From Candidatus Parcubacteria bacterium (GTDB lineage: Bacteria; Patescibacteriota; Patescibacteriia; CAIXNZ01): DNA of 64,000 nucleotides. The stretch lies in the NCBI GenBank assembly GCA_026395685.1, contig JAPLYG010000018.1, forward strand, positions 288-64,287. Direction: 5' to 3'. This document shows, piece by piece, positions 2,916 to 58,930 of this stretch (position 1 is its first letter; each line of letters starts with the position of its first letter). The position numbers and the translations under genes are program-made. Below the pieces are notes generated by a model. That model did no database searches, was not told the DNA's origin, and saw nothing but the letters and a program-made list of their open reading frames with translations.

Positions 2916-3878
2916 TCAAGGTTGTAGAATATCCTCGGTCCTTCCGTCAATTGAAATCGCCACATCTTTAACTGTCGGGAATTGTTTCAATGTCTCCCTT
3001 ATTTGGCTGGCAATGGCGGCCACTCGGCAAGAACCGCCGACCTGAAATTCTAGCTGGCTATTAAAATCAGCATATGCAACGCCGTCTTTTATTGTCACTT
3101 TATTCAAGCTAACGCCTGAATTGATTGAGGTAAAATATTTTTGCGTTAATTCATCTTCAGTCGGGCCTTTTAGGAGCTCTTCCAGGGATGCTTTGGCTGT
3201 GGTGACTGTTTTAGCAATAATGCGGTCAACCGGATAGACTAAGGAACAGTCCATTGCCCCCGGATTTTTCAATTCATTGCCGAAAAATACTTTCAGGGTC
3301 AGAGTTTCAGTCTTTTGAATTTTAACGGGAATTTCAAATTTCTCATCAAGTTCACGCAAATCCGAAGGATTGTCTTTCATAAAAACTAAAGTCCCGTTTT
3401 GATCTTTGGGAGAAATAAAGTTTAATTCAGCTTTAAAAGGCACCCAATTTTCAGTCATCCAGTCACTTTGGGCTGTGGCATAATGAGCAACCAGCACTTT
3501 GCCGTTTTCATCCAATAAAGTTACAGGAAAACTTCCTTCAAAGTACCAGAGCCTGGCAGAGCCGGTTATTGTCAGGGGAGTGGTGATAGTATCGCCAGCC
3601 TTGATATTGTCTATTCTTACATTAACTTCTTCAGGTATGGTATTTGTATTATTATTAGCATTTACATTCGCGTTATTATTATCGTTATAGTTATTGTTCG
3701 CAACAACTCCGCATCCAGTCGTAGGCATCGCGGCAGAAGGATTGCCGTGCTTGAGCCATTGGCCATTACTGCAGTCCCAGGAATCTTCAGTGGATAATTT
3801 TAAATAAGCAACCGAACCAATCGCAATGACAGCCAAAACAATTAAAATAATTGTGACGATTTGGAGTTGTTTGGACAT
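2916..3878 (-). CDS. Membrane-anchored Gmad2 (Ig-like) plus GerMN domain protein
   Basis: N-terminal TM helix, an Asn-rich linker, a Gmad2-like block (RLWYFEGSFPVTLLDENG...MKDNPSDL) and a C-terminal GerMN block (LEELLKGPT...QFPTVKDV). Confidence 0.75.
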   Translation of the reverse strand: MSKQLQIVTIILIVLAVIAIGSVAYLKLSTEDSWDCSNGQWLKHGNPSAAMPTTGCGVVANNNYNDNNNANVNANNNTNTIPEEVNVRIDNIKAGDTITTPLTITGSARLWYFEGSFPVTLLDENGKVLVAHYATAQSDWMTENWVPFKAELNFISPKDQNGTLVFMKDNPSDLRELDEKFEIPVKIQKTETLTLKVFFGNELKNPGAMDCSLVYPVDRIIAKTVTTAKASLEELLKGPTEDELTQKYFTSINSGVSLNKVTIKDGVAYADFNSQLEFQVGGSCRVAAIASQIRETLKQFPTVKDVAISIDGRTEDILQP

Positions 3879-4019
3879 AAGTTTAAAAATTAGGTTATAT
3901 TATGTTTTATTAGGTTAGATGAAGTTTTATTCCGCGATCCGGAATGCCACTCCGTGGCATAAGGTTGCTGTAAAAATTTATTTGATAGATTTTTCCCAGT
4001 TATAAACAAGTGTCAATGA

Positions 4020-4550
4020 TTATTTATCAGATTTTGTCTGGGATAATACTTTATTAATAAATTCTATCTTTTCTTTATAATAGGCTCTGACATTTTTGCC
4101 AGAGGCATTTTCTTTTAATTTTCGATATTCATCTAGCATAGAATGATTTGCCAACAATAGTTCATTAAATTTTTCACTATCTATCCACCCGTTGTCATTT
4201 TGGTTGATTACAAAAATATCAATATGTTTGCCATCGATTGAAGTTACAAATCGGGCTCGCTTCAAAGGGTAATTGCTCCTTGGATTACCAAATAGATTAG
4301 CAATATGATTGACTATGCGATCGAATTCTTCACTCAAAACGGGAATATATATATCAATTTCATCTTGGCCAGATATTTTTAAACTACTAGCACCGCGATG
4401 TTCAACAGCCTGTAGTTGGCCAAGAAGATCCTGAATTTGTTTTTTAATTTGTAAAAATTTGTTTTCACAAGTCGGATCCCAAGGCACAATAGTAACTGTT
4501 TCAGTATCGCTAAGATGGTCAAGCCATTGTTGTTGTTCTGTGGTAATCAT
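4020..4550 (-). CDS. GrpB-family (UPF0157) nucleotidyltransferase-fold protein
   Basis: VEHRGASS...DIDIYIPV is a GrpB-like signature. Size about 176 aa. Confidence 0.55.
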   Translation of the reverse strand: MITTEQQQWLDHLSDTETVTIVPWDPTCENKFLQIKKQIQDLLGQLQAVEHRGASSLKISGQDEIDIYIPVLSEEFDRIVNHIANLFGNPRSNYPLKRARFVTSIDGKHIDIFVINQNDNGWIDSEKFNELLLANHSMLDEYRKLKENASGKNVRAYYKEKIEFINKVLSQTKSDK

Positions 4551-4562
4551 ATGTTTGTGATA

Positions 4563-4581
4563 TTCGGGCTAGTGGGACTTG
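4563..4581. repeat. 19-nt duplicate of the tRNA-Pro 3' end
   Basis: ttcgggctagtgggacttg is identical to 4630..4648, the acceptor 3' strand and T-arm of the tRNA at 4631..4703. Confidence 0.85.
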
Positions 4582-4613
4582 CCCGCCAGAGGCGGGTCCG
4601 CCCTTGGCGGAAA
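4582..4613. repeat. GC-rich palindromic unit, family CCGCCAGRGGCGG...CTTTGGCGGA, copy 1
   Basis: cccgccagaggcggg plus tccgcccttggcgga. Related copies at 11262..11325 and 24403..24432. Confidence 0.65.
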
Positions 4614-4630
4614 CCCACCGATTTTGATTT

Positions 4631-4703
4631 TCGGGCTAGTGGGACTTGAACCCACGGCCTCATGCACCCCATGCATGCGCGCTACCAACTGCGCTATAGC
4701 CCG
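4631..4703 (-). tRNA. tRNA-Pro (anticodon GGG)
   Basis: The reverse complement folds as a cloverleaf: acceptor CGGGCTA/TAGCCCG, D-arm AGCGCAGTTGGTAGCGC, anticodon loop T-GGG-G, T-loop GGTTCAAGTCC. CCA is not encoded. Confidence 0.85.
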
Positions 4704-4761
4704 TCGGGATATATATATATATATTACTTTAAAATGACCTTAAAATCAAGGCTTTACCAGC

Positions 4762-4794
4762 CAAAAAACCTCCCGCAACGCGGGAGGTTTTTTG
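4762..4794. terminator. Bidirectional rho-independent terminator
   Basis: The cctcccgc-aacg-gcgggagg hairpin is flanked by an A-run on the left and a T-run on the right. Confidence 0.75.
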
Positions 4795-4806
4795 TATGAG
4801 AACAGT

Positions 4807-4962
4807 TTATTTGGCTGCGCCGATTTTGAACATTTTGGTGCCACAGTCAGGGCAAGTGCCGGTAACCGCTGGTCTGCCGTTTTTCATCTTTATTTCCTGA
4901 GCATCTTTCATCTCTTTTTTAGCTTTACATTTAACGCAATAAGCTTGAGTCATACAAGGTTT
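4807..4962 (-). CDS. Small zinc-ribbon protein (DUF5679-like), missed by the ORF track
   Basis: Reverse-strand translation MTQAYCVKCKAKKEMKDAQEIKMKNGRPAVTGTCPDCGTKMFKIGAAK, with CxxC...CxxC. Below the 60-aa cutoff. Boundaries are uncertain (a hand-counted 156-nt span versus 147 nt expected for the 48-aa translation). Confidence 0.6.
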   Translation of the reverse strand, partial: KPCMTQAYCVKCKAKKEMKDAQEIKMKNGRPAVTGTCPDCGTKMFKIGAAK

Positions 4963-5010
4963 TAGAGTTAATAATTATCCTTCGACTATGTCTGATTAAA
5001 AATCAAACAA

Positions 5011-5187
5011 TTATCTTGCGACTTTAGATTTTGTACGCAAACAGCTGGTGCAGATTTTTGTTTTTTTACCGTCGATTTTCTTGGTCTGCAAGTTTAAATA
5101 TTTTTTTGTTAAGGTTTTGATGTTGGAATGGCTTCGGCTGGCACTTGATAAGGGGCCGCGGCCACAGATTTCACAAGTTCTGCTCAT
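5011..5187 (-). CDS. rpmB: 50S ribosomal protein L28, missed by the ORF track
   Basis: Reverse-strand translation MSRTCEICGRGPLSSASRSHSNIKTLTKKYLNLQTKKIDGKKTKICTSCLRTKSKVAR has the L28 signature (MSRxCxxxGK...RSH). Confidence 0.8.
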   Translation of the reverse strand: MSRTCEICGRGPLSSASRSHSNIKTLTKKYLNLQTKKIDGKKTKICTSCLRTKSKVAR

Positions 5188-5312
5188 AATGGTATGATGT
5201 TAATAATTGTTAGTTCAGCCACGGAAATATAATCACGCTTAAGGATTATCAGGTGACCTAATTAATGAATGAATTAAGTTTAGCATAAAATATTAATATA
5301 ATCAAGCTTTGT

Positions 5313-5945
5313 ATGAATTTAGACCCGATTTTATTGGTAGTAAATTTTATTGCTTTTTTCTTGGCTTTAACTGTCCATGAATTTTCGCACGCCTTGGTTG
5401 CCTACTTATATGGCGATAAAACAGCTGCTTATGAAGGACGGTTAACTTTGAATCCGATTGCGCATATTGATTTGTTTGGTACCATCTTATTGCCCTTATT
5501 ATTGATTATCAGCCAGACAGGTATTGTCTTTGGCTGGGCCAAGCCCGTACCGGTTAATTATTATAATCTTAAAAATCAGAAATGGGGGCCTGCCATAGTT
5601 TCCTTGGCTGGACCGGCTGCTAATTTAGTTTTTTTAATATTTTCTTTAATTTTATGGAATCTAAATAAATACTATTTAATGCTGCCCCAGGAAAATTTAT
5701 TGGTGCAGTTCGTATCCCTGCTCATTATCGTGAATTCAATTTTAATGATATTCAACCTATTGCCTATATTCCCGTTAGACGGTTCCAAATTGTTATTTGC
5801 CATTTTACCCGATAGATATGAGAATTTTAAGATTTTTTGGGAACGCAATGGTGTTTTGTTCTTAATTATTCTGATGATTTTTGGTTCTGGGTTTCTGAAC
5901 CTGCTTTTCGGCTTATTTTTAGGCTTGCTAACTCCTTTCATGTAA
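5313..5945 (+). CDS. Peptidase M50 / site-2-protease-like zinc metalloprotease (short form)
   Basis: HEFSHAL zinc motif in TM1 and a later NLLPIFPLDGSKL (LDG) motif. Polytopic membrane protein. Confidence 0.8.
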   Translation: MNLDPILLVVNFIAFFLALTVHEFSHALVAYLYGDKTAAYEGRLTLNPIAHIDLFGTILLPLLLIISQTGIVFGWAKPVPVNYYNLKNQKWGPAIVSLAGPAANLVFLIFSLILWNLNKYYLMLPQENLLVQFVSLLIIVNSILMIFNLLPIFPLDGSKLLFAILPDRYENFKIFWERNGVLFLIILMIFGSGFLNLLFGLFLGLLTPFM

Positions 5946-6070: not shown

Positions 6071-6496
6071 ATGCCGACAATTAATCAGCTAGTTAGAAAG
6101 AGTAGAAATTTAACAAAAAAGAAATCTAAAACTCCGGCTTTAGAGAGTGTTTTTAATACAATTACCAGAAAAGCGAAAAAACTAGATTCAGGCAGCCCCT
6201 TTAAAAGGGGGGTATGTTTGAAGGTAACAACTACGACTCCGAAAAAACCTAACTCTGCTTTGCGTAAAATTGCCAGGGTCCGTCTTTCAAATGGCATGGA
6301 AGTAACTGCCTATATTCCGGGAGAAGGCCATAATTTGCAGGAACATTCAATTGTGATGCTGCGCGGGGGCAGGGTAAAAGATCTGCCAGGTGTACGTTAT
6401 CATATTATTCGTGGCCGTTATGATACTCAGGGTGTTGAAAATAGACGAAAAGGCAGATCACTTTATGGCCAGAAACGCCCTAAGGACAAAAAGTAA
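6071..6496 (+). CDS. rpsL: 30S ribosomal protein S12
   Basis: [10 protein letters not shown]...; full-length S12 similarity. Confidence 0.95.
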
Positions 6497-6588: not shown

Positions 6589-7059
6589 ATGAGAGGTAAA
6601 CAAGCACCAAAAAGACCCAGCCAACCAGATGCAAAATTTAAAAATGCTCAAATCGGTAAATTTATTAATTATTTAATGCGCCGAGGCAAAAAATCAGTTG
6701 CTCAAAATGTTGTTTATGATTGCTTTGCCATTATTTCAGAAAAAACCAAGCAGGACGCCATGGAAGTTTTTGATACTGCAATCAGGAATGTCGGACCCTC
6801 TTTAGAGGTTAGAGGACGCAGAATCGGAGGTGCAAATTATCAGATTCCTTTTCCGGTAAGAGTAGAACGACGCTATAATCTGGCTTGTCGTTGGATTATT
6901 GACTCAGCTAATAAAAGAAAAGGCAGATCAATGGCTGAAAAATTAGCTCAAGAAATTATAGATGCCGCCAATAGCCAGGGTGAAGCGTTTAAAAAGAAAG
7001 TTGACGCCCATAAAATGGCTGATGCAAATCGCGCGTTTGCCCATTTTGCCCGCTACTAA
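6589..7059 (+). CDS. rpsG: 30S ribosomal protein S7
   Basis: S7 family similarity throughout, with conserved str-operon position. Confidence 0.95.
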   Translation: MRGKQAPKRPSQPDAKFKNAQIGKFINYLMRRGKKSVAQNVVYDCFAIISEKTKQDAMEVFDTAIRNVGPSLEVRGRRIGGANYQIPFPVRVERRYNLACRWIIDSANKRKGRSMAEKLAQEIIDAANSQGEAFKKKVDAHKMADANRAFAHFARY

Positions 7060-7226: not shown

Positions 7227-9302
7227 ATGCCTCGTGAATATTCTCTAGACAAAACAAGAAATATAGGGATTATGGCCCACATTGACGCCGGTAAGACAAC
7301 TGTTACCGAGCGTGTTTTATTTTATACCGGTAAAAAGCATAAAATAGGAGAAGTTCATGAAGGCGCCGCTGAAATGGACTGGATGGAACAGGAAAAAGAA
7401 AGGGGTATTACCATTACTGCCGCTGCTACCACCTGTTTTTGGAAAGACAATCGCATTAATATTATTGATACTCCCGGCCATGTAGATTTTACAGTGGAAG
7501 TAGAAAGATCTTTACGCGTATTGGACGGCGCAGTTGCTGTTTTTGACGGCTCTCAGGGCGTAGAACCTCAGTCTGAAACTGTTTGGCACCAGGCTGCCAA
7601 ATATGATGTTCCTAGGATTGCTTTTGTTAATAAAATGGATAAAATGGGCGCAGATTTCTATATGACGCTGGATTCAATCGCGGAACGTTTATCCCTCAAC
7701 GCGGCTGCTATTCAACTGCCAATTGGTGCGGAAGAAACATTTAAAGGTTTAGTTGACTTATTAGACAGAAAAGCATTCTTATTTGAAGGCGAGTATGGCC
7801 AAAATATTAAAGAAATTCCAATCCCTGATGATATGAAAGAACAGGTGGAAAAATTTCGGAAAATTTTATTGGAAAAAGTAGCTGAAAATGATGAAGATTT
7901 AATGAATAAATATCTGGCTGGAGAAGAATTAGAAATTAGTCAGATTAAGCAGGTAATAAGAAAGGCTACAATCACTAATGATTTTCATCCGGTTTTATGC
8001 GGTTCAGCTTTAAAAAATATTGGCGTGCAGATGATGCTCGATGCTGTTGTTGCTTATTTGCCCTCGCCTTTAGATATTCCTCCGGTTAAAGGAAAAAATC
8101 CTGATACTGAAGCAGAGGAAATACGTAAAGCTTCTGACGATGAACCATTTGCCGCCTTAGCTTTCAAACTGGCAACTGATCCTTTTGTTGGTAAATTAGT
8201 TTTCTTTCGTGTATATTCCGGTAGTTTAAAAGCAGGTTCTTATGTCTTAAATGCCAAAACAGGCAGTAAAGAGCGAATCGGCCGTATTGTACGTCTGCAC
8301 GCTAATTCCCGCGAAGATGTTGATGAAGTTTTTTCCGGAGAAATCGCAGCTGCAATTGGTTTGAAAAATACTGTTACCGGTAATACTTTATGTGACGAGA
8401 AGGCGCCCATTATTTTGGAAGAAATTATTTTCCCGGAACCGGTCATTTCAGTGGCGATTGAACCAAAAACCAAGGTTGATCAGGAAAAGATGGGTATGGC
8501 AATGCAGAAATTGGCTGAAGAGGATCCTACTTTTAGAATCCATACTGACGAAGAAACTCTGCAGACAATTATTGAAGGCATGGGCGAATTACATCTTGAT
8601 ATTATTGTTGATCGCATGAAAAGGGAATTTAAAGTTGAAGCCAATGTCGGTGCGCCGCAAGTAGCTTATAAAGAAACAATTAAAGCAGCAGCTGAAGCTG
8701 AAGGAAAATATATTAAACAATCTGGCGGACGAGGACAATATGGCCATTGCTGGATTAAAGTTGAACCGAGAGAAAGAGGTGCAGGCTTTGAATTTGTTGA
8801 TGAAATTAAAGGCGGTCTCATCCCCCGGGAATTTATTCCTGCTATTGAGAAAGGCATAAAAGAATCATTAACCAAGGGTATTTTGGCAGGTTATCCGGTT
8901 GTCGATGTTAAGGCTATCGTTTTTGATGGTTCTTATCATGATGTCGATTCGTCTGAAGTAGCTTTCAAAATTGCAGGTTCAATGGCTTTTGTTGAAGCAG
9001 CAAAAAAAGCTAAGCCAGTTATTTTGGAACCGATAATGAAAATTCAGGTAATTACTCCGGAGCAATTCATGGGAGATGTCATCGGTGATTTGAATTCCAA
9101 ACGCGCCCAGATTTCTCAGATGACTGATAAGGTCAAATTGAAAGTGATTGATGGTCAAGTCCCATTATCTGAAATGTTTGGTTATGCTACTTCGTTGCGG
9201 TCATTGACACAGGGTCGCGCAAATTATGTAATGGAATTTTCTCATTATGCCGAAACCCCGAGCAATATAACCCAGAAAATTATTGAAGGGAAGAAAAAAT
9301 AG
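7227..9302 (+). CDS. fusA: Elongation factor G
   Basis: GTPase G1-G5 motifs ([21 protein letters not shown]) with full-length EF-G domains. Confidence 0.95.
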
Positions 9303-9340
9303 GAACCACGGATTTTGTTCACTGATAACACTGATATACG

Positions 9341-9371
9341 AAAACACGCCTAAGTAATTGGGCGTGTTTTT
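9341..9371 (+). terminator. Rho-independent terminator after fusA
   Basis: aaaacacgcc...ggcgtgtttt hairpin followed by a T-run. Confidence 0.75.
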
Positions 9372-9383
9372 GATGGGGGCTGA

Positions 9384-9412
9384 TTGACAATATCGGAACC
9401 ATTTGTTAAGTT
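9384..9412 (+). promoter_or_regulatory. Sigma70-like promoter (TTGACA-N17-TAAGTT)
   Basis: Canonical -35 hexamer, exact 17-nt spacer and an AT-rich -10. Sits upstream of the SD-bearing ORF at 9442. Confidence 0.45.
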
Positions 9413-9441
9413 AATATCAAAATTGAAAAGGAGGGACAAAA

Positions 9442-9825
9442 ATGTCCGAAAAACAAGTTTCTTTTTGGCAGACAGCGACAAATGTAGAAAAGATTATCAA
9501 TTCAATTTTAACTCTCATTCTGAATCTTAAAGGACAGCTCATCCCCAACCATCCGTCAGCGATCTATCTGGTTTTTCCTCCGAATGAGCCTAAAAAGGCA
9601 GATCTGTACTTTTCTCCGCAGGCCAAGCTTCAACAGGAGGCGGATATTCTTTTGAGAAGAATCGAGCTGCCGGAAGGCATTTTGATAAATGAGCTTTTAG
9701 GCCTAGCCTCAGTAAGGCTTAATCAACTGTTGCAAGTATACTACAGTCCTAGCAGAAGCATATATTTGCTGGAAACTGAATACCGTGAAGGCGGTCTGAT
9801 GATTAATATGATTAGGAAAGGTTAA
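9442..9825 (+). CDS. Hypothetical protein (island gene, strong SD)
   Basis: AAAGGAGGG lies 6 nt upstream of the ATG. I recognise no domain. It is followed by its own terminator at 9835..9864. Confidence 0.5.
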   Translation: MSEKQVSFWQTATNVEKIINSILTLILNLKGQLIPNHPSAIYLVFPPNEPKKADLYFSPQAKLQQEADILLRRIELPEGILINELLGLASVRLNQLLQVYYSPSRSIYLLETEYREGGLMINMIRKG

Positions 9826-9834
9826 TTGTTTTTC

Positions 9835-9864
9835 AACCACCCAAAAAGGGGTGGTTTTATTTAT
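9835..9864 (+). terminator. Rho-independent terminator
   Basis: aaccaccc-aaaaa-ggggtggtt hairpin followed by a T-run. Confidence 0.7.
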
Positions 9865-9987
9865 GGCCGCAATATTTTGTATTTTGTACTATGTGTATAA
9901 AAAGTGCATAAACCTCGGGATAATTATGTGTATAACTATGTGTATAAGCATGTTGAAAATTTGTTTATAATTAGCCTAGAAATGGCT

Positions 9988-10016
9988 TGACGCAATCTGT
10001 AAATAATTATACAATA
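9988..10016 (+). promoter_or_regulatory. Sigma70-like promoter (TTGACG-N17-TACAAT)
   Basis: Consensus-like hexamers with a 17-nt spacer. Drives the short unit that ends at the terminator 10144..10175. Confidence 0.5.
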
Positions 10017-10143
10017 CAATCACGAACCCTACTTGATTACTGAGTTAAGTATTTCTAATCTCAATTTTTTTGGGATTGGTATTTGGCTCAGTGTCCTAAG
10101 CGGGGTTTTTTGTTGGATAAAATTTTATGGAGGAGAACTTTAA

Positions 10144-10175
10144 AGGAAACACCACGCTGTTTCCTTTTTGTTTTG
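10144..10175 (+). terminator. Rho-independent terminator closing a ~150-nt unit that contains an SD plus a 23-codon ORF
   Basis: aggaaaca-ccacgc-tgtttcct hairpin followed by a T-run. Upstream, GGAGGAG-ATG 10127 opens the ORF MEENFKGNTTLFPFCFVHCRLGR. Confidence 0.55.
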
Positions 10176-10279
10176 TTCACTGTCGTTTAGGAAGGTAATT
10201 AGGATGCTTAAGAGTTTTAAGGGATATTGGCAGATTAACGCAGTAACCAGCCAAAGAAGTAGAAAGGGGGAAGTCTAAA

Positions 10280-11158
10280 ATGGTAGCGACCAAGCTCGTG
10301 ATGAATAATCAGATCCCCAGAGTTTTCAAAAACCTGGATCCTGAAACTCAGCAACTCGCGCAAGCGATTTGCGGCCACAAAGTCAACGGCATAAATGTGC
10401 ATCTGAAGCATTTGGCTGAAAACCTCAGACGTTCGGAAATGATTATTTGGGTGACCAAACGGCTCATTTCGGATGAGGCCCTTGGCGTCAACTGGGAGCA
10501 TTTGCTGGAGGATATTACTGAACAATGCCTCAAACCGTTCCACGAAGAAACCTACCGCCATCTTAAGCGTATGCACCAGATCGTGGCGGAACAGTTGAAA
10601 TTGCTGGAGCATCAAAAGCCTGAACAGCTGGATGACTTTGGCTGTGAAGACTTCCGTACTATGCATCATTTTGAACTGACTCCGGAAGATCAACAAAATC
10701 TGAAATGGGCTGCTGCTTTCCATGATTTGGGGCGTATGTGTTATCCAGTTTCTTTCTGGAATACGCCAGGTCGATTCAGCCAGAAACAGCGAGAGCAGCT
10801 TGAGTTCCATGCTCGGAATTTTTACTTCCTGGGAGAAATGCTTAATGTTTGCCAGGAGGTAATCGCCCTGTCAGTATTGCATCATTATCCCAATAAGGGC
10901 TATCCTGATAACGGTATTATTGCTAAGTTAAGGCCCTTTTTGGATCAGCCGAAATTTCAGTACATGCTGAAATGGCTGGTTACTAACGATGTTTACGGCG
11001 GTGCGACCGACAAGCGCAGTTACCGGGATCAAATCTGGACTCACGAACAAGTGATCCAGCAAACTATGCCTGTGGAAATGGCTCGCGTAGGCCTGGGTTG
11101 GGTGCCTTTTATTCAGGCGCTAAAACAATCCGGACAAAGAGTCGTTTGCCCAGCTTAA
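10280..11158 (+). CDS. Stand-alone HD-GYP-type phosphohydrolase (candidate cyclic-dinucleotide phosphodiesterase)
   Basis: Motifs AAAFHDLGR, PGRFSQKQREQLEFH, HHYPNKGYPDNG (HHExxDGxGYP-like) and NDVYGGATDKRSYRD. Preceded by AAAGGGGGAAG. Coding G+C is visibly higher than in fusA or tuf. Confidence 0.7.
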   Translation: MVATKLVMNNQIPRVFKNLDPETQQLAQAICGHKVNGINVHLKHLAENLRRSEMIIWVTKRLISDEALGVNWEHLLEDITEQCLKPFHEETYRHLKRMHQIVAEQLKLLEHQKPEQLDDFGCEDFRTMHHFELTPEDQQNLKWAAAFHDLGRMCYPVSFWNTPGRFSQKQREQLEFHARNFYFLGEMLNVCQEVIALSVLHHYPNKGYPDNGIIAKLRPFLDQPKFQYMLKWLVTNDVYGGATDKRSYRDQIWTHEQVIQQTMPVEMARVGLGWVPFIQALKQSGQRVVCPA

Positions 11159-11261
11159 CCCTTCAAAGGGCCCCCTTCTACTCAGCTCTATTGTTGGGAG
11201 GAGAGGGCCCTTGACTTTCTTTTCGATTTAAGTTAAGTTATATATAGTTTTTTAGAATTTT

Positions 11262-11325
11262 TGTCCGCCAGGGGCGGGTTCCCGCCATAGGCGGGCAGGC
11301 TGCCTTTGGCGGACAAACTTTTTTT
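11262..11325 (+). repeat. GC-rich palindromic unit, copy 2, acting as a terminator
   Basis: gtccgccaggggcgggttcccgccataggcgggcaggctgcctttggcggac followed by TTTTTTT. Confidence 0.7.
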
Positions 11326-11330
11326 ATTTT

Positions 11331-11642
11331 ATGATCAACTTGCAAAGAATTTTAGATCTTATACGCAAAACAGGGGATAAATATATTTTTGAAGATGAAA
11401 ATAATGGCATGTTTGTAGTTATGTCTTTGCCTGATTATGAAAATTATATTTTTAAAAATAATCAGCTGAAAGACTTATCAGAGGAAGAGCTTTTAAATAA
11501 AATAAATAAAGATATCGCCATCTGGAAAGCTACCCAGGAGGACAAAACATTGGCTGAAAACTGGCATGATTTGCCCCTGGAAGAAAAAAAATCATCAGAA
11601 GATGATCAATACTATTTTGAGCCTGTTGAGGATGAGGAATAA
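11331..11642 (+). CDS. Small acidic protein, possibly a Phd/YefM-like antitoxin fold (orphan)
   Basis: The N-terminus ...GMFVVMSLPDYENY resembles the Phd/YefM core, and the C-terminus is acidic. No toxin partner is adjacent. Native low GC, no SD. Confidence 0.3.
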   Translation: MINLQRILDLIRKTGDKYIFEDENNGMFVVMSLPDYENYIFKNNQLKDLSEEELLNKINKDIAIWKATQEDKTLAENWHDLPLEEKKSSEDDQYYFEPVEDEE

Positions 11643-11781
11643 AAAATACTTGCCAAGGCTTGAAATTGTGCTATAATTATAGACACATTAACCCAAATAT
11701 AATTATTAATTAAATTTAGTGGGCGGCTGGATAAAACTCTCCCGTTTTAGGGTCAGAGGCCGTTACCCAGGAGTTAAAACA

Positions 11782-12969
11782 ATGGCAGAAAAATACGAAC
11801 GTAAAAAGCCCCATGTTAACGTCGGTACAATCGGTCACGTTGACCATGGAAAAACCACGTTAACAGCTGCAATTTTAAATTATATTAACGCTATTGGCGG
11901 CAAAGCGCAGCAAAAAAGTGTTGCTCAGATTGATGCAGCCCCAGAAGAAAAAGAACGTGGTATTACTATTGCCACTGCTCACGTTGAATATGAAACTGAA
12001 AAAAGGCACTATGCCCACGTTGATTGCCCTGGCCATGCTGATTATATCAAAAATATGATTACTGGCGCGGCACAAATGGATGGCGCTATTTTGGTTGTAG
12101 CTGCGACAGATGGTCCGATGCCTCAAACTCGTGAACATATTTTATTAGCAAGACAGGTAGGCGTACCTTCAATTGTTGTATTCTTAAATAAGGTTGATCA
12201 GGTTTCTGATCCGGAACTGATAAGTTTAGTTGAAGAAGAAGTTCGTGAATTATTGAAAAAATATGAATATCCAGGTGATGAAACTCCTATTATCAGAGGC
12301 TCAGCTTTGAAGGCCTTGGAAAATCCTAAAGGAGAAGATGGCAAATGCATTCAACAGCTTTTAGATGCTTTGGATAGCTTTATTCCTGAACCAAAGAGAG
12401 AGATTGATAAGCCTTTCTTAATGCCGGTGGAAGATGTTTTCTCTATTGAAGGACGCGGTACTGTAGTTACTGGTAAAATTGAAAGAGGTAAAATCAAGGT
12501 TTCTGAAGAAATTGAAATTGTTGGTCTCAAACCCACTCAAAAAACAGTAGTTACTGGTATTGAAATGTTTAATAAATCATTAGATGAAGGTATGGCTGGT
12601 GACAATGCCGGCTTATTATTGAGAGGTACTAAAAAGGAAGATGTAGAAAGAGGCCAAGTTATTGCTAAGCCAGGATCAATTACGCCTCACACTGAATTTG
12701 AAGCAGAGGTTTATATTTTAACCAAAGAAGAAGGTGGCAGACATAAACCATTTTTTAAAGGATATAAACCGCAATTTTATATCAGAACAACTGACGTTAC
12801 GGGTGAAATTGAAATTTTAGGCGGCGCTGAAATGGTTATGCCGGGCGATACCATCCATTTAAAGGTAAAATTAATTGCTCCCGTTGCTTTGGAAGAAAAA
12901 GGTAAACTTGCCATTCGTGAAGGCGGCAAAACAGTTGGTGCTGGCGTGGTAGTTAAAATTATTGCTTAA
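11782..12969 (+). CDS. tuf: Elongation factor Tu
   Basis: [26 protein letters not shown]... The track ORF starts at an upstream in-frame GTG. ATG 11782 matches the EF-Tu N-terminus. Confidence 0.95.
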
Positions 12970-29579: not shown

Positions 29580-30386
29580 ATGGAAACATGGAAGATTCAG
29601 GTTGGTGAGGCTGTCGTGGTTTCTAATATTCTTAAAGCCAAAGATACTTGGGAATTAGAATTAAACCTAGGTAATGACCTTGATGTGACTGCTTTTTTGC
29701 CCGGTCAGTTTGTCTGCTTAGCGCCTTTGGATCCGAGCTCAACTATGGCCAGGCCATTCAGTATTGCCAGTATTAGTACTTTCAACGGCACTTTTTCCTT
29801 GCTGTATAAAGTCATTGGAAAAAACACGGAATTGATGGCCAGGCTTGCAGTCGGAGAAAAGGTAAAGTTCTGGGGACCTTTGGGTCAGGGATTTCTACCT
29901 AACACGGATGAGTATGATGAAGTCTGGCTGATAGGCGGTGGAATCGGCATTGCTCCGCTGATTTTCTATGAAAAGGTCGTTTCGGAATTTCAGGGCGGGA
30001 TTGTCAGGGTTTTTTATGGCAATAAAACCGGGGCAGAAATTATTCCCTTGGATTTATATTGCCAAGAACCTTTGATAATAGTCACTGACGATGGCTCCAT
30101 TGGCTGTCAAGGTTTTGTAACTGATGTTGTACAGGCCTACATGAAAGTGGCCAATGAAAAAAAGATTTTAGTCATTACCTGCGGTCCCAAAGTCATGATG
30201 CGCAAAGTTGCGGATATCTGCCAGCAGGCAGGCCAGGATTGCTATGTGATTTTGGAAACAATCATGGCCTGCGGCCTCGGAGTTTGTCTGGGCTGTTCAA
30301 TCAAGACGTCTTCGGGCATGAAACGCATTTGCCATGATGGACCGGTTTTTCCGGCTAAGGAGGTAATCTGGGATGAGCTCAGTTAA
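29580..30386 (+). CDS. pyrK: Dihydroorotate dehydrogenase electron-transfer subunit (FAD/2Fe-2S)
   Basis: FNR-like fold plus a C-terminal CGLGVCLGC...C cluster. SD AAAGGGAGGA. Confidence 0.85.
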   Translation: METWKIQVGEAVVVSNILKAKDTWELELNLGNDLDVTAFLPGQFVCLAPLDPSSTMARPFSIASISTFNGTFSLLYKVIGKNTELMARLAVGEKVKFWGPLGQGFLPNTDEYDEVWLIGGGIGIAPLIFYEKVVSEFQGGIVRVFYGNKTGAEIIPLDLYCQEPLIIVTDDGSIGCQGFVTDVVQAYMKVANEKKILVITCGPKVMMRKVADICQQAGQDCYVILETIMACGLGVCLGCSIKTSSGMKRICHDGPVFPAKEVIWDELS

Positions 30387-31287
30387 TCTTGGCGTTGAGA
30401 TTGGCGGTATCAGACTGAAAAATCCGATTATGCCGGCCTCAGGAACCTTTGGCAACGGAGAAGAATTTGCCGGCATTCAGGGCATGGATTTAAGTGCGCT
30501 GGGAGCGCTGGTTACCAAGGGTACAACTCTGGAACCGCGAGCTGGCAATCCGCAGCCACGGATCAGAGAAACAGCCAGCGGCATGATCAACTTTATAGGC
30601 CTGGCAAATCCGGGTGTTAAAGCTTTTATTGAAGAAAAATTGCCGTTTATGGCTCAGTTCGAGACTCCGATCATTGTCAATGTTTCCGGTTTTACGCTTA
30701 ACGAATATGTTCGGATGGCTGAGTTACTTGATCAGGTGCCATCTGTTGCAGGATTGGAAATAAATATTTCCTGTCCCAATGTAGAAGGCGGCAGAATTCC
30801 TTTTGGCAGTGATGCTCAAATCGCTGCCAATGTTATTCGAGCGGTGCGCAGGGCTACGAAATTGCCTTTGATCGTTAAGCTGACGCCGAACGTAACTGAT
30901 ATTGTGCCGATTGCTAAAGCAGTAGTTGATGTCGGAGCCAATGCCATTTCCATGATCAATACGGTCCGAGCTGCATTTATTGACCGAGGCAAAATCATCC
31001 AGGGCGGGCTTTCTGGCCCGGCTATCAAACCAATTGCCCTATGTCTAATCAATCAGGTGTCTCAGGCAGTCAATGTGCCGATAATAGGCATGGGCGGAAT
31101 CAGTACCCTGCAGGACATTTTTGATTTTTTCCAGGTCGGTGCGTCAGCTGTTGCCATTGGCACAGCGAATTTCAAAAATCCGCTGGTGATGATGGCGCTG
31201 ATTGACCAGCTGGAAAAATATTGTTTGGAACACGGCCTAGCCAATATTGACCAGGTCAAAGCAAGGATAAAAGGAGGAAAAGGGTGA
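30373..31287 (+). CDS. pyrD: Dihydroorotate dehydrogenase catalytic subunit (class 1B)
   Basis: ...IMPASGTFGNG..., ...NISCPN... and GGIST motifs. Confidence 0.9.
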   Translation: MSSVNLGVEIGGIRLKNPIMPASGTFGNGEEFAGIQGMDLSALGALVTKGTTLEPRAGNPQPRIRETASGMINFIGLANPGVKAFIEEKLPFMAQFETPIIVNVSGFTLNEYVRMAELLDQVPSVAGLEINISCPNVEGGRIPFGSDAQIAANVIRAVRRATKLPLIVKLTPNVTDIVPIAKAVVDVGANAISMINTVRAAFIDRGKIIQGGLSGPAIKPIALCLINQVSQAVNVPIIGMGGISTLQDIFDFFQVGASAVAIGTANFKNPLVMMALIDQLEKYCLEHGLANIDQVKARIKGGKG

Positions 31288-32045
31288 TGAAGGAAATTGC
31301 TAATGTCAACGAAAGGTTGATCGTGGCAGCGGACTTTGAGCTGGAAGGCAATGACGTACAGGCGGCGATAAATGTTCGCCAAAAGGTGCTGCAACTTGCC
31401 GATGCTCTCCACGGAACAGGCGTGATCATCAAGGTCAACTCCATCTTACGAGCCGGGGGATACAGCCTGGTCGAAGAGCTCCATGAGCGCGGACTTAAGG
31501 TCATGGCTGATCTCAAGCTGGTGGATATTCCCCAGACCATGAAGATCGACGGACAGCTTCTGGCTTGCTATAAGCCGGAGATTGTCACTGTCATGGCCAA
31601 TGCCGGAATCGATGGCCTGTCAGCCTTGGTTAAGGCTATGCCTGCGACGCAGGTTTTAGCCGTGACGGTGCTGACATCGTTGGATGAAGAAGAATGCCAG
31701 CAGATCTACTGCTGCTCAACCAAAGCCGGCGTGCTCAGATTTGCGCGCATGGCTCAAGCCGCTGGTTGCGCAGGCCTGGTGCTTTCACCCAAGGAAGTGG
31801 ACGTGATCAGGAAACGGCCGGCGTTGAACGCGCTTTCCCTCAATACTCCGGGCATCCGGCCCACCTTCGGCGTGGTCAAAGGCGATGACCAAAAACGGAC
31901 TGACACTCCGGAAGCAGCTTTTCTGGCCGGCGTGGATCGGATCGTGGTCGGACGTCCGATTACCCAGGCGGAAAATCCGCAGGTAGCAGTGCAATTGATC
32001 TTGGAGGAGATCAAGGTCGCACTTGAGAAAAAGGAAAAGAAATAA
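31284..32045 (+). CDS. pyrF: Orotidine-5'-phosphate decarboxylase
   Basis: ADLKLVDIPQTM active-site motif (D-K-x-x-D-I-P-x-T). The highest G+C in the window. Confidence 0.8.
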   Translation: MMKEIANVNERLIVAADFELEGNDVQAAINVRQKVLQLADALHGTGVIIKVNSILRAGGYSLVEELHERGLKVMADLKLVDIPQTMKIDGQLLACYKPEIVTVMANAGIDGLSALVKAMPATQVLAVTVLTSLDEEECQQIYCCSTKAGVLRFARMAQAAGCAGLVLSPKEVDVIRKRPALNALSLNTPGIRPTFGVVKGDDQKRTDTPEAAFLAGVDRIVVGRPITQAENPQVAVQLILEEIKVALEKKEKK

Positions 32046-32046
32046 C

Positions 32047-32082
32047 AGCCAAGGGATTCCCATCCGGGAGTCCCTTTTTTAT
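32047..32082 (+). terminator. Terminator after pyrF
   Basis: agggattcccatccgggagtccct followed by a T-run. Confidence 0.6.
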
Positions 32083-32159
32083 TTCGTTAATCGTTTTTCG
32101 CTATCGATATTCGTTTCATTTATCGTTATACGTCTAACGTAACGAACTTTGATAACTGA

Positions 32160-32188
32160 TTGACGAATTAAACGAGGTTTGATAAGGT
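32160..32188 (+). promoter_or_regulatory. Promoter TTGACG-N17-TAAGGT (island promoter 3)
   Basis: Exact 17-nt spacer. Sits upstream of pyrE. Confidence 0.45.
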
Positions 32189-32239
32189 GGAGGAAATTAG
32201 GGATTGTTTTTAAAGCAAAAAAGAAGAAGGAGGAAAGTG

Positions 32240-33007
32240 ATGAAAGAATTAGCGGTTATTGAGACAGTGAAAAACGGAGGCGTCTTTGCGCTAAATTCAA
32301 GTGACTTTGAAGGGCGGCGCATGACCATCAACGAGGTGGTGGCGATTTTGAGCGCCTTTGATGCCTTTTGGCAATATCAAGGCGATCCTTGCGTCCAAAA
32401 GCCACATGCGCTACTGAAGTCGGGCAAGCACAGCAACGGTTTCATCAATTGCAAGGAGGTGCTGGATTATCCGCTGTTGTGCATGTTGCTGGCGCATGAG
32501 ATGCTCAAAGAAGCCAAATCACATCTTGCTCAGGATGTTCTGGCCACAATAGGCGGGGTGGCTGCTTCAGCCTATTCGGCCTTGGATCCCGGCTTTTGCC
32601 TGGCTTGGCTGTTGAGCAAAGAGTACAATCACCGGATCAAAGCCTTTAAGGCTGAAAAAGACGATAAGGGCAATCCGACCATCATTCGTGGTGGGATCGA
32701 CCCCAGCTTGAATGTCTTGGTCATCAACGAACTGATGACCACGGCCAGCGGCTCAACTTGGGAGACCAAACAAGCTGTCTTGAAAACCAATGGCGACAAG
32801 CCGGCGCCTAAAGTGCTGGATAAAGCGATCGTGTTGATGCACAGATCAAAGGATTTCCAGTTGCCTGACGGCTCACTTGTTGTTCCAGTCTTTCATTTCG
32901 ACATTGAGAACTTCGAGCCGGAAAACTGCCCTTACTGCCAAGTTGGTTCGCAGGCTATCAAGCCCAAAGTCGGCAACAACTGGAATATTTTACACGGCTG
33001 GGCCTAG
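32240..33007 (+). CDS. pyrE: Orotate phosphoribosyltransferase with a C-terminal extension
   Basis: LKSGKHSNGFINCKEVLDYP resembles the OPRTase loop, and VLVINELMTTASGST is the PRPP-binding motif. I chose the start at ATG 32240 after GGAGGAAAGTG. The extra ~70 aa include CPYC. Confidence 0.7.
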   Translation: MKELAVIETVKNGGVFALNSSDFEGRRMTINEVVAILSAFDAFWQYQGDPCVQKPHALLKSGKHSNGFINCKEVLDYPLLCMLLAHEMLKEAKSHLAQDVLATIGGVAASAYSALDPGFCLAWLLSKEYNHRIKAFKAEKDDKGNPTIIRGGIDPSLNVLVINELMTTASGSTWETKQAVLKTNGDKPAPKVLDKAIVLMHRSKDFQLPDGSLVVPVFHFDIENFEPENCPYCQVGSQAIKPKVGNNWNILHGWA

Positions 33008-43112: not shown

Positions 43113-43150
43113 ATCCCGCCTTATAAGGCAGGATTATTTTTTTAGAAATT
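43113..43150. terminator. Bidirectional terminator between parB and rel
   Basis: aataatcctgcc-ttataa-ggcaggattatt followed by T7. Confidence 0.75.
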
Positions 43151-44600
43151 TTTCGATTAATGTTCTTTTGGCGAGAGCGCTTTTAATTTTATTTTTCGCT
43201 ACGCTCGTTTTAACAAATTTTAGCCAGTCAGCACTTGGGTTTTTGCGATTTTTATCAGTTATGATCTCAATCACATCGCCGCTTTTTAAGGGCGAGTTCA
43301 GGCTGGCAATATGATTATTAATTAAAGCCCCCGTGCATTGCGCACCGATATCAGTATGTACATAGTAGGCGAAATCTATAGGGGTGGCTCCTTTGGGCAA
43401 GTCAATAACATCTCCTTTGGGAGTGAAAACAAAAATTCGGTCATTAAAGACATCGATCTTTAAATTTTCTAAATATTTTTCGTTTTCGGATAATTCTTTT
43501 TGCCATTTAGTCAGTTCATCTATCCATTTTATTTTCTTGGAGGGTATTAATGATCCTTTTTCATCATAATGCCAGTGGGCAGCAATGCCATATTCAGCTT
43601 CCTCTTCCATTTCCTTAGTTCTGATTTGAATCTCAATTATTTCGCCATCAACCGTAAAGACCGTAGTATGCAAAGAAGAATAGCCATTTGGCTTGGGTTG
43701 AGCAATATAATCCTTAATGCGCCCTTTAAGAGGTTTCATCTTTTTATGGATAATTCCCAAGACAGCATAGCAGGTAGGAATATCTTGTACAATAATACGA
43801 ATGGCGACAAAATCATAGACGCGGTTAATGTCTTTGTCATGTTCAAGCAATTTGGCATAAAGGCTGTATAATTGCTTGACGCGTCCTTTGACTTCCAGAT
43901 ATTCAATCCCTTCTTCTTTCAGCTCTTTTTTTACAAAAGCGATTATTTCATCTAAATATATTTCTTTGGTTTTAAGTTGTTTTTCTACCAAGCCTTTTAG
44001 CCAGTTGTATTCTTTAGGATATAAGTATTTGAAGGATTCTTCTTCTAATTTACCTTTCATTTCATACATGCCGAGTCGATTGGCAATTGGCGCATAAATT
44101 TCCAGAACTTCAGAGGCAATGCGAATCTGTTTATCTCGAGGCAAAGCATATAAGGTCTTTAAATTATGATACCGGTCGGCGAATTTTATGAGGATTACCC
44201 TGGTATCTTTGGCCATGGCCACAAACATTTTGCGTAAATTTTCAATATATCGTTCAATGCCGCGGTATTTGATGTTTCCTAATTTTGTAATGCCTTCAAC
44301 TAGCGTAGCAACTTCTTCTCCAAAATTTTTCGTAATATCTTCTAACGTATATTTTGTATCTTCCGGCACGTCATGCAAAAGGCCGGCTATGATAATATTA
44401 GGGCTTAATTTCATGTCCGCCAGCATTTGAGCAGTTGCTAACGGATGATGAATATAATCTTCACCTGTCAGTCTCTTTTGGCCGTCATGAGCCTGCTTGG
44501 CAAAAAGAAAAGCCAGCTCAATAAGCCCTAAATCAGCTTTGGGATTGTATTCTTTGATGGTTTTTAATAGGTGTTGTATTTTTTTCTCAAGTTCAGGCAT
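43134..44600 (-). CDS. rel: RelA/SpoT-family (p)ppGpp synthetase/hydrolase, short form (HD + synthetase + TGS, no ACT)
   Basis: HD motif (HHPLA...HDVPED), synthetase domain, and a TGS block (DRIFVFTPKGDVIDLPKGATPIDFAYYVHTDIG). Confidence 0.85.
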   Translation of the reverse strand: MPELEKKIQHLLKTIKEYNPKADLGLIELAFLFAKQAHDGQKRLTGEDYIHHPLATAQMLADMKLSPNIIIAGLLHDVPEDTKYTLEDITKNFGEEVATLVEGITKLGNIKYRGIERYIENLRKMFVAMAKDTRVILIKFADRYHNLKTLYALPRDKQIRIASEVLEIYAPIANRLGMYEMKGKLEEESFKYLYPKEYNWLKGLVEKQLKTKEIYLDEIIAFVKKELKEEGIEYLEVKGRVKQLYSLYAKLLEHDKDINRVYDFVAIRIIVQDIPTCYAVLGIIHKKMKPLKGRIKDYIAQPKPNGYSSLHTTVFTVDGEIIEIQIRTKEMEEEAEYGIAAHWHYDEKGSLIPSKKIKWIDELTKWQKELSENEKYLENLKIDVFNDRIFVFTPKGDVIDLPKGATPIDFAYYVHTDIGAQCTGALINNHIASLNSPLKSGDVIEIITDKNRKNPSADWLKFVKTSVAKNKIKSALAKRTLIEKFLKK

Positions 44601-53772: not shown

Positions 53773-53938
53773 GTGGATAAACTTAAAATTTAGAGAAAAT
53801 TAGTCTCTCCTATATATATTTAACCAGAAAAAAAGATAAAAATCAAGTTTTATCGTTGGGATTATGCAATTTGCCTTTCTTTGTTTTTTATGATATTATT
53901 TTACTAATCGTTTATATTATTAAACAGATATATAAAGT

Positions 53939-58887: not shown

Positions 58888-58930
58888 ATTATCAATTCTC
58901 AATCCCTAACATATAAAAATCTCAAATCCC

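Follow-up and report, generated by a model that had tools for sequence, protein, structure and literature searches.

A structured RNA and a divergent HD-GYP-like protein gene in a probably inherited, clade-specific module between fusA and tuf of Buchananbacteria-like Parcubacteria

The systems that come closest to the locus analysed here have been described separately. HD-GYP enzymes, represented in the PDB by PmGH (4mcw), V-cGAP3 (5z7c) and DvhD (9rbz), share an all-helical HD fold, and some of them are single-domain proteins. Transcriptional attenuators and the ToxIN type III toxin-antitoxin loci consist of a promoter and a short structured RNA with an intrinsic terminator, followed by a protein gene on the same strand, an arrangement in which read-through would set the ratio of RNA to protein. 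Clusters of DnaA boxes that titrate DnaA or regulate their neighbours are also known outside the replication origin, datA of E. coli being one of them. In B. subtilis such clusters comprise several close matches to the DnaA-box consensus, TTATNCACA (PMC4447404), that are intergenic, beside a promoter and away from oriC (PMC3245932, PMC4447404). The Phd/YefM antitoxins (PF02604) are small proteins whose N-terminal half is structured and whose acidic C-terminus is flexible, and the operators of YefM carry TGTACA cores 12 bp apart (PMC1802561). In the current analysis we describe elements resembling each of these in the gap between the translation-factor genes fusA and tuf of a Candidatus Parcubacteria bacterium, a member of the candidate phyla radiation (CPR). 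The DNA analysed is a stretch of 64,000 nucleotides (GenBank assembly GCA_026395685.1, contig JAPLYG010000018.1, positions 288 to 64,287 of the forward strand), referred to as the window, and all positions are those of the window unless a locus of a relative, numbered L001 onwards, is named.

The gap encodes a structured RNA, an open reading frame (ORF) for a divergent HD-GYP-like protein of 292 residues (ORF292) and a further ORF for a Phd/YefM-like protein of 103 residues (ORF103), and an array of DnaA-box-like repeats precedes the RNA. We consider it rather probable that the gap is a vertically inherited, clade-specific module of Buchananbacteria-like Parcubacteria with a regulated RNA/phosphohydrolase unit, and not a recent insertion. 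The genomic context of ORF292 homologues was retrieved over the full range of identity, from 82% to 26%. At least 13 distinct relatives have the order fusA, variable slot, conserved non-coding element, ORF292 homologue, ORF103 homologue and tuf, and wherever the contig is long enough the ORF292 homologue is flanked by fusA on one side and, on the other, by a gene of about 100 codons that precedes tuf. The ORF292 identities of the syntenic relatives are 82%, 80% and 68%, 59% and 39%, and 42%, 33% and 26-29%; loci of Candidatus Buchananbacteria with identities of 51% and 39% have the same synteny, and the most divergent syntenic member has 324 residues. The EF-G homologues of the relatives are 79-91% identical to the window fusA product and carry the EF-G Pfam domains, and their EF-Tu is 85-91% identical to that of the window. 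Among the ORF292-bearing clade the RNA, ORF292 and ORF103 occupy the same place in every relative, and only the slot beside fusA is patchy. ORF292 is under purifying selection, with a ratio of nonsynonymous to synonymous substitution rates (dN/dS) of 0.11-0.15, the values for tuf and fusA being 0.06 and 0.03. The module is marked by this synteny and conservation together with RNA structure and with the motif and fold relationships of ORF292.

The original prediction had regarded the block of about 2 kb as a higher-GC insertion, perhaps the cargo of a small integrated element, that splits a normally contiguous fusA-tuf. Such a recent horizontal insertion would be consistent with the GC content at third codon positions (GC3) of ORF292, which at 0.52 (overall GC 0.47) is the highest among the window genes tested, with the promoter and terminator belonging to each unit, and with the variable slot beside fusA and its orphan ORF of 127 codons (ORF127). 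The raised GC content was confirmed for ORF292 and for a GC-rich palindrome downstream, to which it is limited, and does not apply to the stretch 9800-10250, which is AT-rich with 31-34% GC. Higher GC and much higher GC3 of the ORF292 homologues than of the adjoining fusA and tuf were found in all relatives, so that the excess is a property of the gene family and no trace of a recent transfer. The order RNA-ORF292-ORF103 in every relative examined, down to 26% identity, and the purifying selection on ORF292 speak against an insertion as well. No ORF for a recombinase, transposase or integrase was found in 9303-11781, and the block lacks direct repeats or att sites at its flanks, the sole family of direct repeats of at least 13 nt in 9200-11900 being the internal array of boxes. 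The proteins of the locus have no match in PHROGs, PADLOC or NCBIfam; a scan of viral contigs gave no relatives, and phage and plasmid records searched by tblastn gave only distant matches to the HD region, with 22-29% identity. Recent insertion or mobile-element cargo was rejected on the grounds of the shared synteny, the conserved GC excess and the absence of repeats and recombinase; these comparisons largely refute it for ORF292, the RNA and ORF103, and for the 2-kb block as a whole it is very improbable. A block within a conserved operon that has raised GC, Shine-Dalgarno (SD) sequences and terminators of its own can resemble an island and yet be an ancient, vertically inherited part of the operon, and composition alone would mislead.

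The features of the locus are the following, with promoters given as predicted.

6071-6496: rpsL, str operon of the window
6589-7059: rpsG, str operon of the window
7227-9302, + strand: fusA (EF-G), ORF of 691 residues, last gene of the rpsL-rpsG-fusA unit
9341-9353 and 9358-9370, then a T-run to 9375, + strand: terminator-like hairpin after fusA, an inverted repeat with 92% complementarity
9442-9825, + strand: ORF127, with SD sequence AAAGGAGGG and its own terminator at 9835-9856
9892-9970, + strand: phased direct-repeat array with matches to the reverse complement of the DnaA box
9987-10015, + strand: promoter P1 (TTGACG, 17 nt, TACAAT), preceded by TTTGTTTAWAATTAGC
10022-10112, + strand: rod-shaped RNA of about 90 nt, from folding, covariation and a covariance model
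10142-10167, with a U-run to 10175, + strand: second intrinsic-terminator-like hairpin (GGAAAC...GUUUCC), from a terminator scan and as an inverted repeat with 100% complementarity
10204-10278, + strand: SD-led upstream ORF of 24 codons, with its stop one base before the ATG of ORF292
10280-11158, + strand: ORF292, divergent HD-GYP-like, from motifs, profile comparison and fold
11166-11212, + strand: GC-rich terminator-like hairpin after ORF292, from an inverted repeat and a terminator scan
11211-11239, + strand: promoter P2 for ORF103 (TTGACT, 17 nt, TAAGTT)
11260-11326, + strand: leader hairpin of ORF103 and a run of seven U, with the inverted repeat 11260-11275 / 11302-11317
11331-11642, + strand: ORF103, Phd/YefM-like from weak Pfam and fold matches, conserved
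11650-11677, + strand: promoter P3 for tuf (TTGCCA, 16 nt, TG-n-TATAAT)
11782-12969, + strand: tuf (EF-Tu), with rpsJ (13072) and the S10 operon downstream

The str operon is truly interrupted, as had been claimed. The terminator of fusA at 9341-9370 and the start of tuf at 11782 are both present, and fusA, ORF127, the RNA/ORF292 unit, ORF103 and tuf each have promoter-like or terminator-like signals. The earlier count of three things between fusA and tuf had overlooked the conserved gene of 103 codons at 11331-11642. P3 is the top promoter match of the region in a consensus scan, agreeing with 11 of 12 consensus positions and possessing an extended -10 element. ORF103, the C-terminal 195 residues of ORF292 and ORF127 are each 100% identical to proteins of a Candidatus Parcubacteria metagenome-assembled genome (MAG; NTZ49_05060, NTZ49_05070, NTZ49_05075). 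Elsewhere in the window the GC content is well above the average of about 0.37 at 30000-33000 (0.50) and at 58000-64000 (0.43-0.45).

The spacer upstream of ORF292 is strongly conserved in the alignment of the relatives and contains the structured RNA. The hairpin of this RNA starts at about +3 of the inferred transcript, and has an invariant 5' end, AACCCUACUUG, and an invariant 3' end, GCGGGGUUUUUU, which make the rod RNA itself intrinsic-terminator-like. The window RNA folds as a rod with a minimum free energy of -38.3 kcal/mol (z = -8.4), and all 13 distinct versions of the RNA fold as rods despite their differing inner sequence. In a covariance-model alignment, which is fitted to the structure and hence biased towards it, 91.9% of the cells are paired against 81.2% in shuffled ones, and 12 pairs are changed on both sides; sliding the partners as a control lowers the pairing to 37-60%. 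Independently of this model, MAFFT/RNAalifold gave 8 compensatory pairs. With the covariance model the + strand reaches 64-99 bits, whereas no score on the - strand exceeds 29 bits; this strand specificity argues for an RNA and not a DNA palindrome.

Further loci have been recovered by a DNA-pattern scan of public genomes and metagenomes for the invariant ends of the RNA. Every genuine match is situated upstream of an ORF292 homologue, with one copy per locus and on the same strand. The matches in L011 (within mreC) and L015 were rejected as chance matches in coding DNA. A match in L020 was set aside, as it has no ORF292 tblastn match at E <= 1e-5, yet an N-terminus resembling that of ORF292 could be recognised by reading. 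Scanning of metagenome contigs with the protein-family alignment gave nothing confirmable. The RNA is structured, strand-specific and obligately linked to ORF292.

No known RNA family was found for the rod. Rfam 15 gave no match to it at gathering thresholds over the whole window, nor at E <= 10 over 9300-11800, and no paper describing the locus or the RNA was found in the literature. The conserved part of the signal recognition particle RNA, of 6S RNA and of Y RNAs is the apical loop or a central bubble. An identity with any of these was rejected, since the apex is the variable part of the rod RNA.

Two terminator-like hairpins stand between P1 and ORF292. In the first, which is the rod itself, the stem and a run of six or seven U are present and invariant, and the second has been called by the terminator scan; its GGAAAC...GUUUCC stem and U-run are visible in most relatives, including L025. 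The promoter-to-terminator unit predicted earlier at 9988-10175 is retained in its promoter (9987-10015) and its terminator (10142-10167), and what lies within it is the covariation-supported RNA instead of the SD-led ORF of 23 codons. That ORF, at 10127-10198, spans the second terminator and is not conserved as judged from the alignment and from reading of the flanks. A different SD-led short ORF, which ends at or overlaps the ORF292 start and whose peptide is not conserved, is found in 8 of the 12 loci, and it is possible from this placement that the window copy at 10204-10278 is translationally coupled to ORF292.

The rod RNA could instead be a free-standing small RNA with its own gene, acting in trans or binding a protein, in which case ORF292 would be transcribed independently. 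A strong conserved promoter directly before a complete hairpin and U-tract, followed by a second terminator, is what such a gene would look like; the hairpin is much longer than a terminator requires, and the invariant terminal sequences suggest sequence-specific recognition. The RNA is, on the other hand, found only together with ORF292, always directly upstream and on the same strand, the consensus scan called no promoter between the second terminator (10175) and the ORF292 start (10280), and no target or partner was identified. A free-standing RNA is hence a possibility to be kept in mind, with the greater weight on a terminator-gated leader of ORF292.

The layout of promoter, RNA, terminator and ORF also resembles toxIN-type loci, and a toxin-antitoxin-like function may be considered in two forms, namely a type III system of RNA antitoxin, terminator and toxin, or a reversed type II system with ORF292 as toxin and ORF103, with its Phd/YefM-like domain and acidic tail, as antitoxin. 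The layout is the one feature in common with type III systems, whose tandem-repeat RNA and ToxN/AbiEii toxin were not found; in place of an array of repeats the RNA forms one hairpin of about 40 bp, and ORF292 encodes an HD-type enzyme, not a ToxN-like RNase, with an HD fold, no similarity to known toxins and no PADLOC match. ORF103 has its own promoter and persists in loci without ORF292, and the fixed position and vertical inheritance differ from a sporadic occurrence. A toxin-antitoxin-like function is therefore quite improbable. In comparison with attenuators and ToxIN loci in general, the locus is distinguished by tandem terminators, by the lack of a discernible antiterminator, by its chromosomally fixed and vertically inherited position and by an RNA outside the Rfam families.

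ORF292 is predicted to encode a divergent HD-GYP-like metal-dependent phosphohydrolase that is nearest to the HD-GYP enzymes, as suggested by profile comparison and a modelled fold. Formal membership in the Pfam families is not reached, HD_5 (PF13487) scoring 17.4 bits (E = 0.004) where 27.2 are required and HD (PF01966) 15.7 bits where 22 are required, and a sequence search of the PDB with the ORF292 family profile gave nothing significant (V-cGAP3, E = 0.12). An exhaustive profile search of 1.84 billion representative sequences recovered 14 clusters at E < 1e-10; the weaker matches align to residues of about 129-263, and 9 of 9 scanned are HD_5/HD proteins. In an hhalign comparison the ORF292 family matches P0091 (HD_5 E = 4.8e-44) with a probability of 95.5% and E = 1.5e-8, and the motifs are aligned, the pairs being AAFHDLGRM/YFHDIGKL, PGRFS...FHARN/KGKLS...KHPYH, LHHY--PNKGYP/QHHESLSGNGYP and TNDVYGGATDKRSYR/VADVFTALTEDRPYR. 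The AlphaFold model, built from an alignment of 11 sequences, has a mean predicted local distance difference test score (pLDDT) of 89.7. Its six best PDB matches in Foldseek are all HD-GYP domains, among them DvhD (9rbz) and PmGH (4mcw), with probability 1.0 and E-values of 5.6e-3. The proposal of an HD-GYP-type enzyme in the original prediction is in this way supported by the HD, H, HH, GYP and D motifs, the profile-profile comparison and the fold, and fails on the HD_5 cut-off.

The residues H148, D149, H177, H201, H202, Y208 and P209 are invariant in the family, and D119 and D237 nearly so. Six of the seven metal ligands of HD-GYP domains are identical in ORF292, and the first His is substituted by an Asp of the motif DDFG (D118 or D119), which could still bind metal. 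The aligned FHDxG(R/K), PG-x-F/L-S...H, HH...(G)YP and xxDVYxxxTxxRxYR motifs are shared with the HD-GYP enzymes, and like some of these ORF292 stands alone. The window protein has 206-KGYP-209, and the G is H or R in several relatives. ORF292 further differs from the known HD-GYPs in an N-terminal helical extension of about 125 residues that matches no known family, in an invariant C-terminal Cys, and in forming a tiny clade-restricted family locked between fusA and tuf. GenBank annotates a protein of only 195 residues starting at an internal Met (NTZ49_05070). The N-terminal 97 residues are kept in all homologues, and therefore the reading of 292 residues is right and the public annotation is truncated. 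Taken by its sequence, ORF292 appears to be a new, clade-restricted variant of HD-GYP-type enzymes.

The protein is probably catalytic, and we infer that it acts on a nucleotide-derived phosphoester, cyclic or linear dinucleotides being the most likely class. It might alternatively be a degenerate, non-catalytic receptor of nucleotides, since its top Foldseek match is the c-di-GMP-bound receptor domain of DvhD, which has been characterised as a non-catalytic c-di-GMP receptor (PMC13090378), and both the replacement of the first His and the variable G of GYP would be in keeping with this. The HD pair, H177, HH and D237 are invariant or nearly so in a family that has diverged to 26% identity, and Asp is itself a competent metal ligand, which renders a receptor unlikely and catalysis the preferred reading. 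The role first suggested for ORF292, a degradation of foreign cyclic oligonucleotide signals in the manner of V-cGAP enzymes, found nothing in its support. No GGDEF motif is present in the 64-kb window, and the premise that CPR organisms lack diguanylate cyclases is not universal, as some CPR MAGs encode them (PMC9938205). A role in defence or counter-defence was dismissed as both PADLOC and PHROGs were empty. The window also encodes a full-length Rel/SpoT homologue (HD_4, RelA_SpoT, TGS) at 43134-44600 on the - strand, from which it follows that the organism has a (p)ppGpp metabolism not dependent on ORF292.

Immediately before P1 lies an array of direct repeats with a period of 11-12 bp, of which seven units are recognisable in the window and eight in most relatives. 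The window array comprises three exact DnaA boxes and four with one mismatch, and 3 of the 5 exact matches in the 64-kb window are found here. Across the loci the density of boxes is 14.1 per kb against a background of 0.024 per kb, an enrichment of about 590-fold, and in 11 of the 12 loci the repeat units occupy fixed positions from -145 to -63. A composite of 88 units reads T-G-T-(G/T)-N-A-(T/A)-A-A and thereby equals the DnaA box read on the opposite strand (TGTGNAWAA = TTWTNCACA), so that clustered matches to its consensus are present. P1 itself agrees with 10 of 12 consensus positions in the consensus scan, and its hexamers and spacing are kept across the relatives (TTGACR, 17 nt, TAnnAT), as is the TTTGTTTAWAATTAGC motif upstream of it.

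From the sequence of the repeated 9-mer DnaA is most likely the candidate binder. The array is far more regular than the B. subtilis clusters. The eight boxes have one orientation and a strict period of 11-12 bp and end immediately before the -35 hexamer, a given box position shows the same characteristic variant from genome to genome, and the array precedes the promoter of a small hairpin RNA and a phosphohydrolase, the binding of DnaA being a prediction. A single perfect consensus DnaA box, TGTGGATAA, is also found at 53772-53780, on the margin of the intergenic region that separates a LytR-family gene from the divergently oriented signal peptidase gene.

Eight phased DnaA-box-like sites clustered beside AT-rich DNA would also be expected at a chromosomal replication origin. 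The GC3 skew of the + strand is mainly positive on both sides of the array without a switch of sign, being positive in 6 of 6 genes tested upstream of 5.2 kb; the cumulative GC skew rises almost monotonically over the 64 kb, only 44-47 kb being flat, and neither dnaA nor dnaN is among the 10 window ORFs scanned. On these grounds oriC was rejected, and it is the least credible of the readings of this array.

The repeats may instead be operators for ORF103 or for another regulator. The 12-bp period of the window array and its TGTATA or TGTGCA-like cores recall the TGTACA cores of YefM operators, and the N-terminal fold of ORF103 is Phd/YefM-like. In many loci the -35 hexamer of P1 is closely preceded by a TTAGCTAA palindrome, which is also found at L027 1084, upstream of an ORF103 homologue in a locus without the RNA and ORF292; the palindrome may serve the Phd/YefM-like protein as an operator. 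As a shared operator near P1 it was not accepted, being absent from some loci and imperfect in the window (9970-9985, TTAGCCTA), and it is a lead only. The best-conserved positions of the array include the 3' A-W-A-A (86-90%), which fits the DnaA 9-mer and not a TGTACA hexamer, its units are direct repeats and not palindromes, ORF103 homologues are present without the array in L009 and L027, and the Phd/YefM assignment is weak. Binding of the array by ORF103 or another regulator is thus conceivable, though rather doubtful, and DnaA is retained as the preferred candidate.

ORF103 belongs to a family that is broader and better conserved than that of ORF292, with 63 homologous proteins. They share the invariant motifs KTGD and EELLNKINKDIAIW and an acidic C-terminal tail, ED-x-YYFEPVEDEE. 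The homologue is located immediately upstream of tuf wherever downstream sequence is available. In L009/L010 and L027 it is found directly before tuf and after fusA without ORF292 or the RNA, L027 having an ORF of 160 residues on the opposite strand between fusA and the ORF103 homologue. As read from these sequences, ORF103 is older than the ORF292/RNA unit and is tied to tuf, and since the tail is kept in L027 it is independent of ORF292.

The relationship of ORF103 to Phd/YefM is a weak one. The Pfam family PhdYeFM (PF02604) scores 19.6 bits (E = 7.7e-4) against a cut-off of 29.8, which falls short of membership, and several homologues have a precomputed match to the same family; the AlphaFold model has a pLDDT of 69, and YefM and Phd are its best PDB folds, with probabilities of at most 0.96 and E = 0.2. 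The protein agrees with these antitoxins in its small size and in joining a structured N-terminal half to an acidic, flexible C-terminus. It differs in its YYFEPVEDEE tail, in its highly conserved and syntenic, not sporadic, occurrence, and in being followed by tuf and not by a toxin gene. No adjacent cognate toxin such as YoeB or Doc was found, tuf downstream having its own promoter and ORF292 upstream being separated by a terminator and a promoter.

The GC-rich hairpin after ORF292 is present in every relative examined, and its 3' arm overlaps the -35 hexamer of P2. Sequence reading indicates that P2 (TTGACn, 17 nt, TAAGnT) is conserved in place among the relatives inspected, and the strict consensus scan did not call it. 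A hairpin and U-run right before the ATG of ORF103 are found in most relatives, the hairpin being AT-rich (GUUUUA...UAAAAC) in several of them. ORF103 has no SD sequence, its ATG being preceded by a conserved AAAACUUUUUUUAUUUU tract after the hairpin (11320-11333), whereas the neighbouring genes have a strong GGAGG. Such an SD-less start behind a hairpin and U-tract, which is a further difference from the Phd/YefM antitoxins, suggests that translation is initiated in another way or that an attenuator is present.

In the window the ORF103 leader hairpin is composed of GC-rich CCGCCnnnGGCGG units, copies of which occur at 4583, 4598, 11265, 11282, 11300 and 24404, six in the window against 0.52 expected. 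Similar small GC hairpins are found in the ORF103 leader of L003 and L005. The GC-rich palindrome reported earlier is real (11260-11317). It does not mark the edge of an insertion, since it lies within the conserved leader hairpin; as the unit is dispersed and the leader hairpin conserved, the palindrome is a dispersed mini-palindrome inside a conserved leader. The CCGCCnnnGGCGG units may represent a miniature repeat family, similar to repetitive extragenic palindromes, in an AT-rich CPR genome. Two of them are situated at 4566-4650 between the 3' end of tRNA-Pro and an 18-19-nt copy of it (TTCGGGCTAGTGGGACTTG) about 66 nt from the true tRNA end, and this copy resembles the target-site duplication, or a remnant of the att site, of a small element inserted at the tRNA.

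The slot after fusA holds unrelated content in the relatives. L001 has an ORF of 1007 residues on the opposite strand, L004 an ORF of 175 residues with DEDD-exonuclease-like motifs recognised by eye, and in L021 the slot measures about 3.1 kb; it is empty in L003, L005, L006 and L007. ORF127 fills it in the window, and a single homologue with 83% identity was found among 5.8 billion proteins, on L024, where it follows a truncated upstream ORF that is probably the C-terminus of fusA. ORF127 matches no family in Pfam, PHROGs, NCBIfam or PADLOC, and its dN/dS is about 0.43. The SD-led ORF and its terminator at 9835-9856 are as previously described, and the promoter proposed for it (TTGACA at 9384-9389, 17 nt, TAAGTT) failed the consensus scan. 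ORF127 is the only part of the gap that behaves like variable, possibly inserted or de novo material.

Two further observations were made on the str operons of the relatives. In L003, a 455-kb long-read contig, fusA is broken into five short ORFs (3340-5425). Given their 97% identity to the window EF-G, assembly frameshifts are a more probable cause than a pseudogene. The Buchananbacteria-like locus L007 encodes an ORF of 111 residues with a weak match to MazG, a nucleotide pyrophosphohydrolase, between rpsG and fusA (2122-2457), a second gene of nucleotide-hydrolase type within the str operon of this clade.

A scheme can be proposed that links these parts. A DNA-binding protein on the phased array, most likely DnaA, would set the activity of P1, and the transcript would fold from about +3 into a rod hairpin of about 40 bp, which has a U-tract and invariant ends. 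Most transcripts would stop at the tandem terminators to give the 90-nt RNA, and those extended past them would express ORF292, its translation being coupled to the upstream ORF in many lineages. The RNA would thus serve as a terminator-gated leader that keeps ORF292 low and conditional, and ORF292 would act on a nucleotide-derived phosphoester. ORF103, with its own conserved promoter and leader hairpin, would form a further layer that is tied to tuf. In its full extent, with a DnaA-controlled rod RNA gating a new, fast-evolving HD-GYP-like branch and coupling replication to the turnover of a nucleotide messenger and, via the Phd-like protein, to EF-Tu, this circuit is speculative and, as a whole, unlikely.

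Several points weigh against the scheme. The start of transcription, its termination and the read-through are read from signals in the DNA, and a free-standing small RNA would suit the rod just as well. With the hairpin beginning at the very 5' end of the transcript, no competing antiterminator fold can be discerned, and the upstream ORF is absent in 4 of the 12 loci. For ORF292, the HD_5 score stayed below the cut-off and the profile search of the PDB below significance, the E-values in Foldseek are weak, the top structural match is a non-catalytic receptor, an Asp stands in the place of the first canonical His and the G of GYP varies. With regard to the array, its period of 12 bp departs from that of classical DnaA arrays, which is 11 bp, several units deviate from the box at one position, and the Phd/YefM-like protein is an alternative binder.

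Apart from this circuit, the gap between fusA and tuf is an ordinary vertically inherited neighbourhood, with a structured RNA and an unusually regular DnaA-box-like array. It brings to light three uncharacterised conserved parts, namely an RNA without an Rfam family, an HD-GYP-like branch whose divergence has left it hypothetical in both Pfam and NCBI, and a Phd/YefM-like protein. All three belong to organisms that do not grow in pure culture and about whose regulation very little has been learned. The ORF103-type protein stands directly before tuf across a wider clade. Should DnaA bind the array, the site would stand out among extra-origin DnaA sites by its regularity and would offer a rare hint of a link between replication, nucleotide signalling and translation in the streamlined genomes of CPR bacteria; and if the proposed circuit were true, a CPR clade would possess a new regulatory circuit in the heart of its translation-factor operon.

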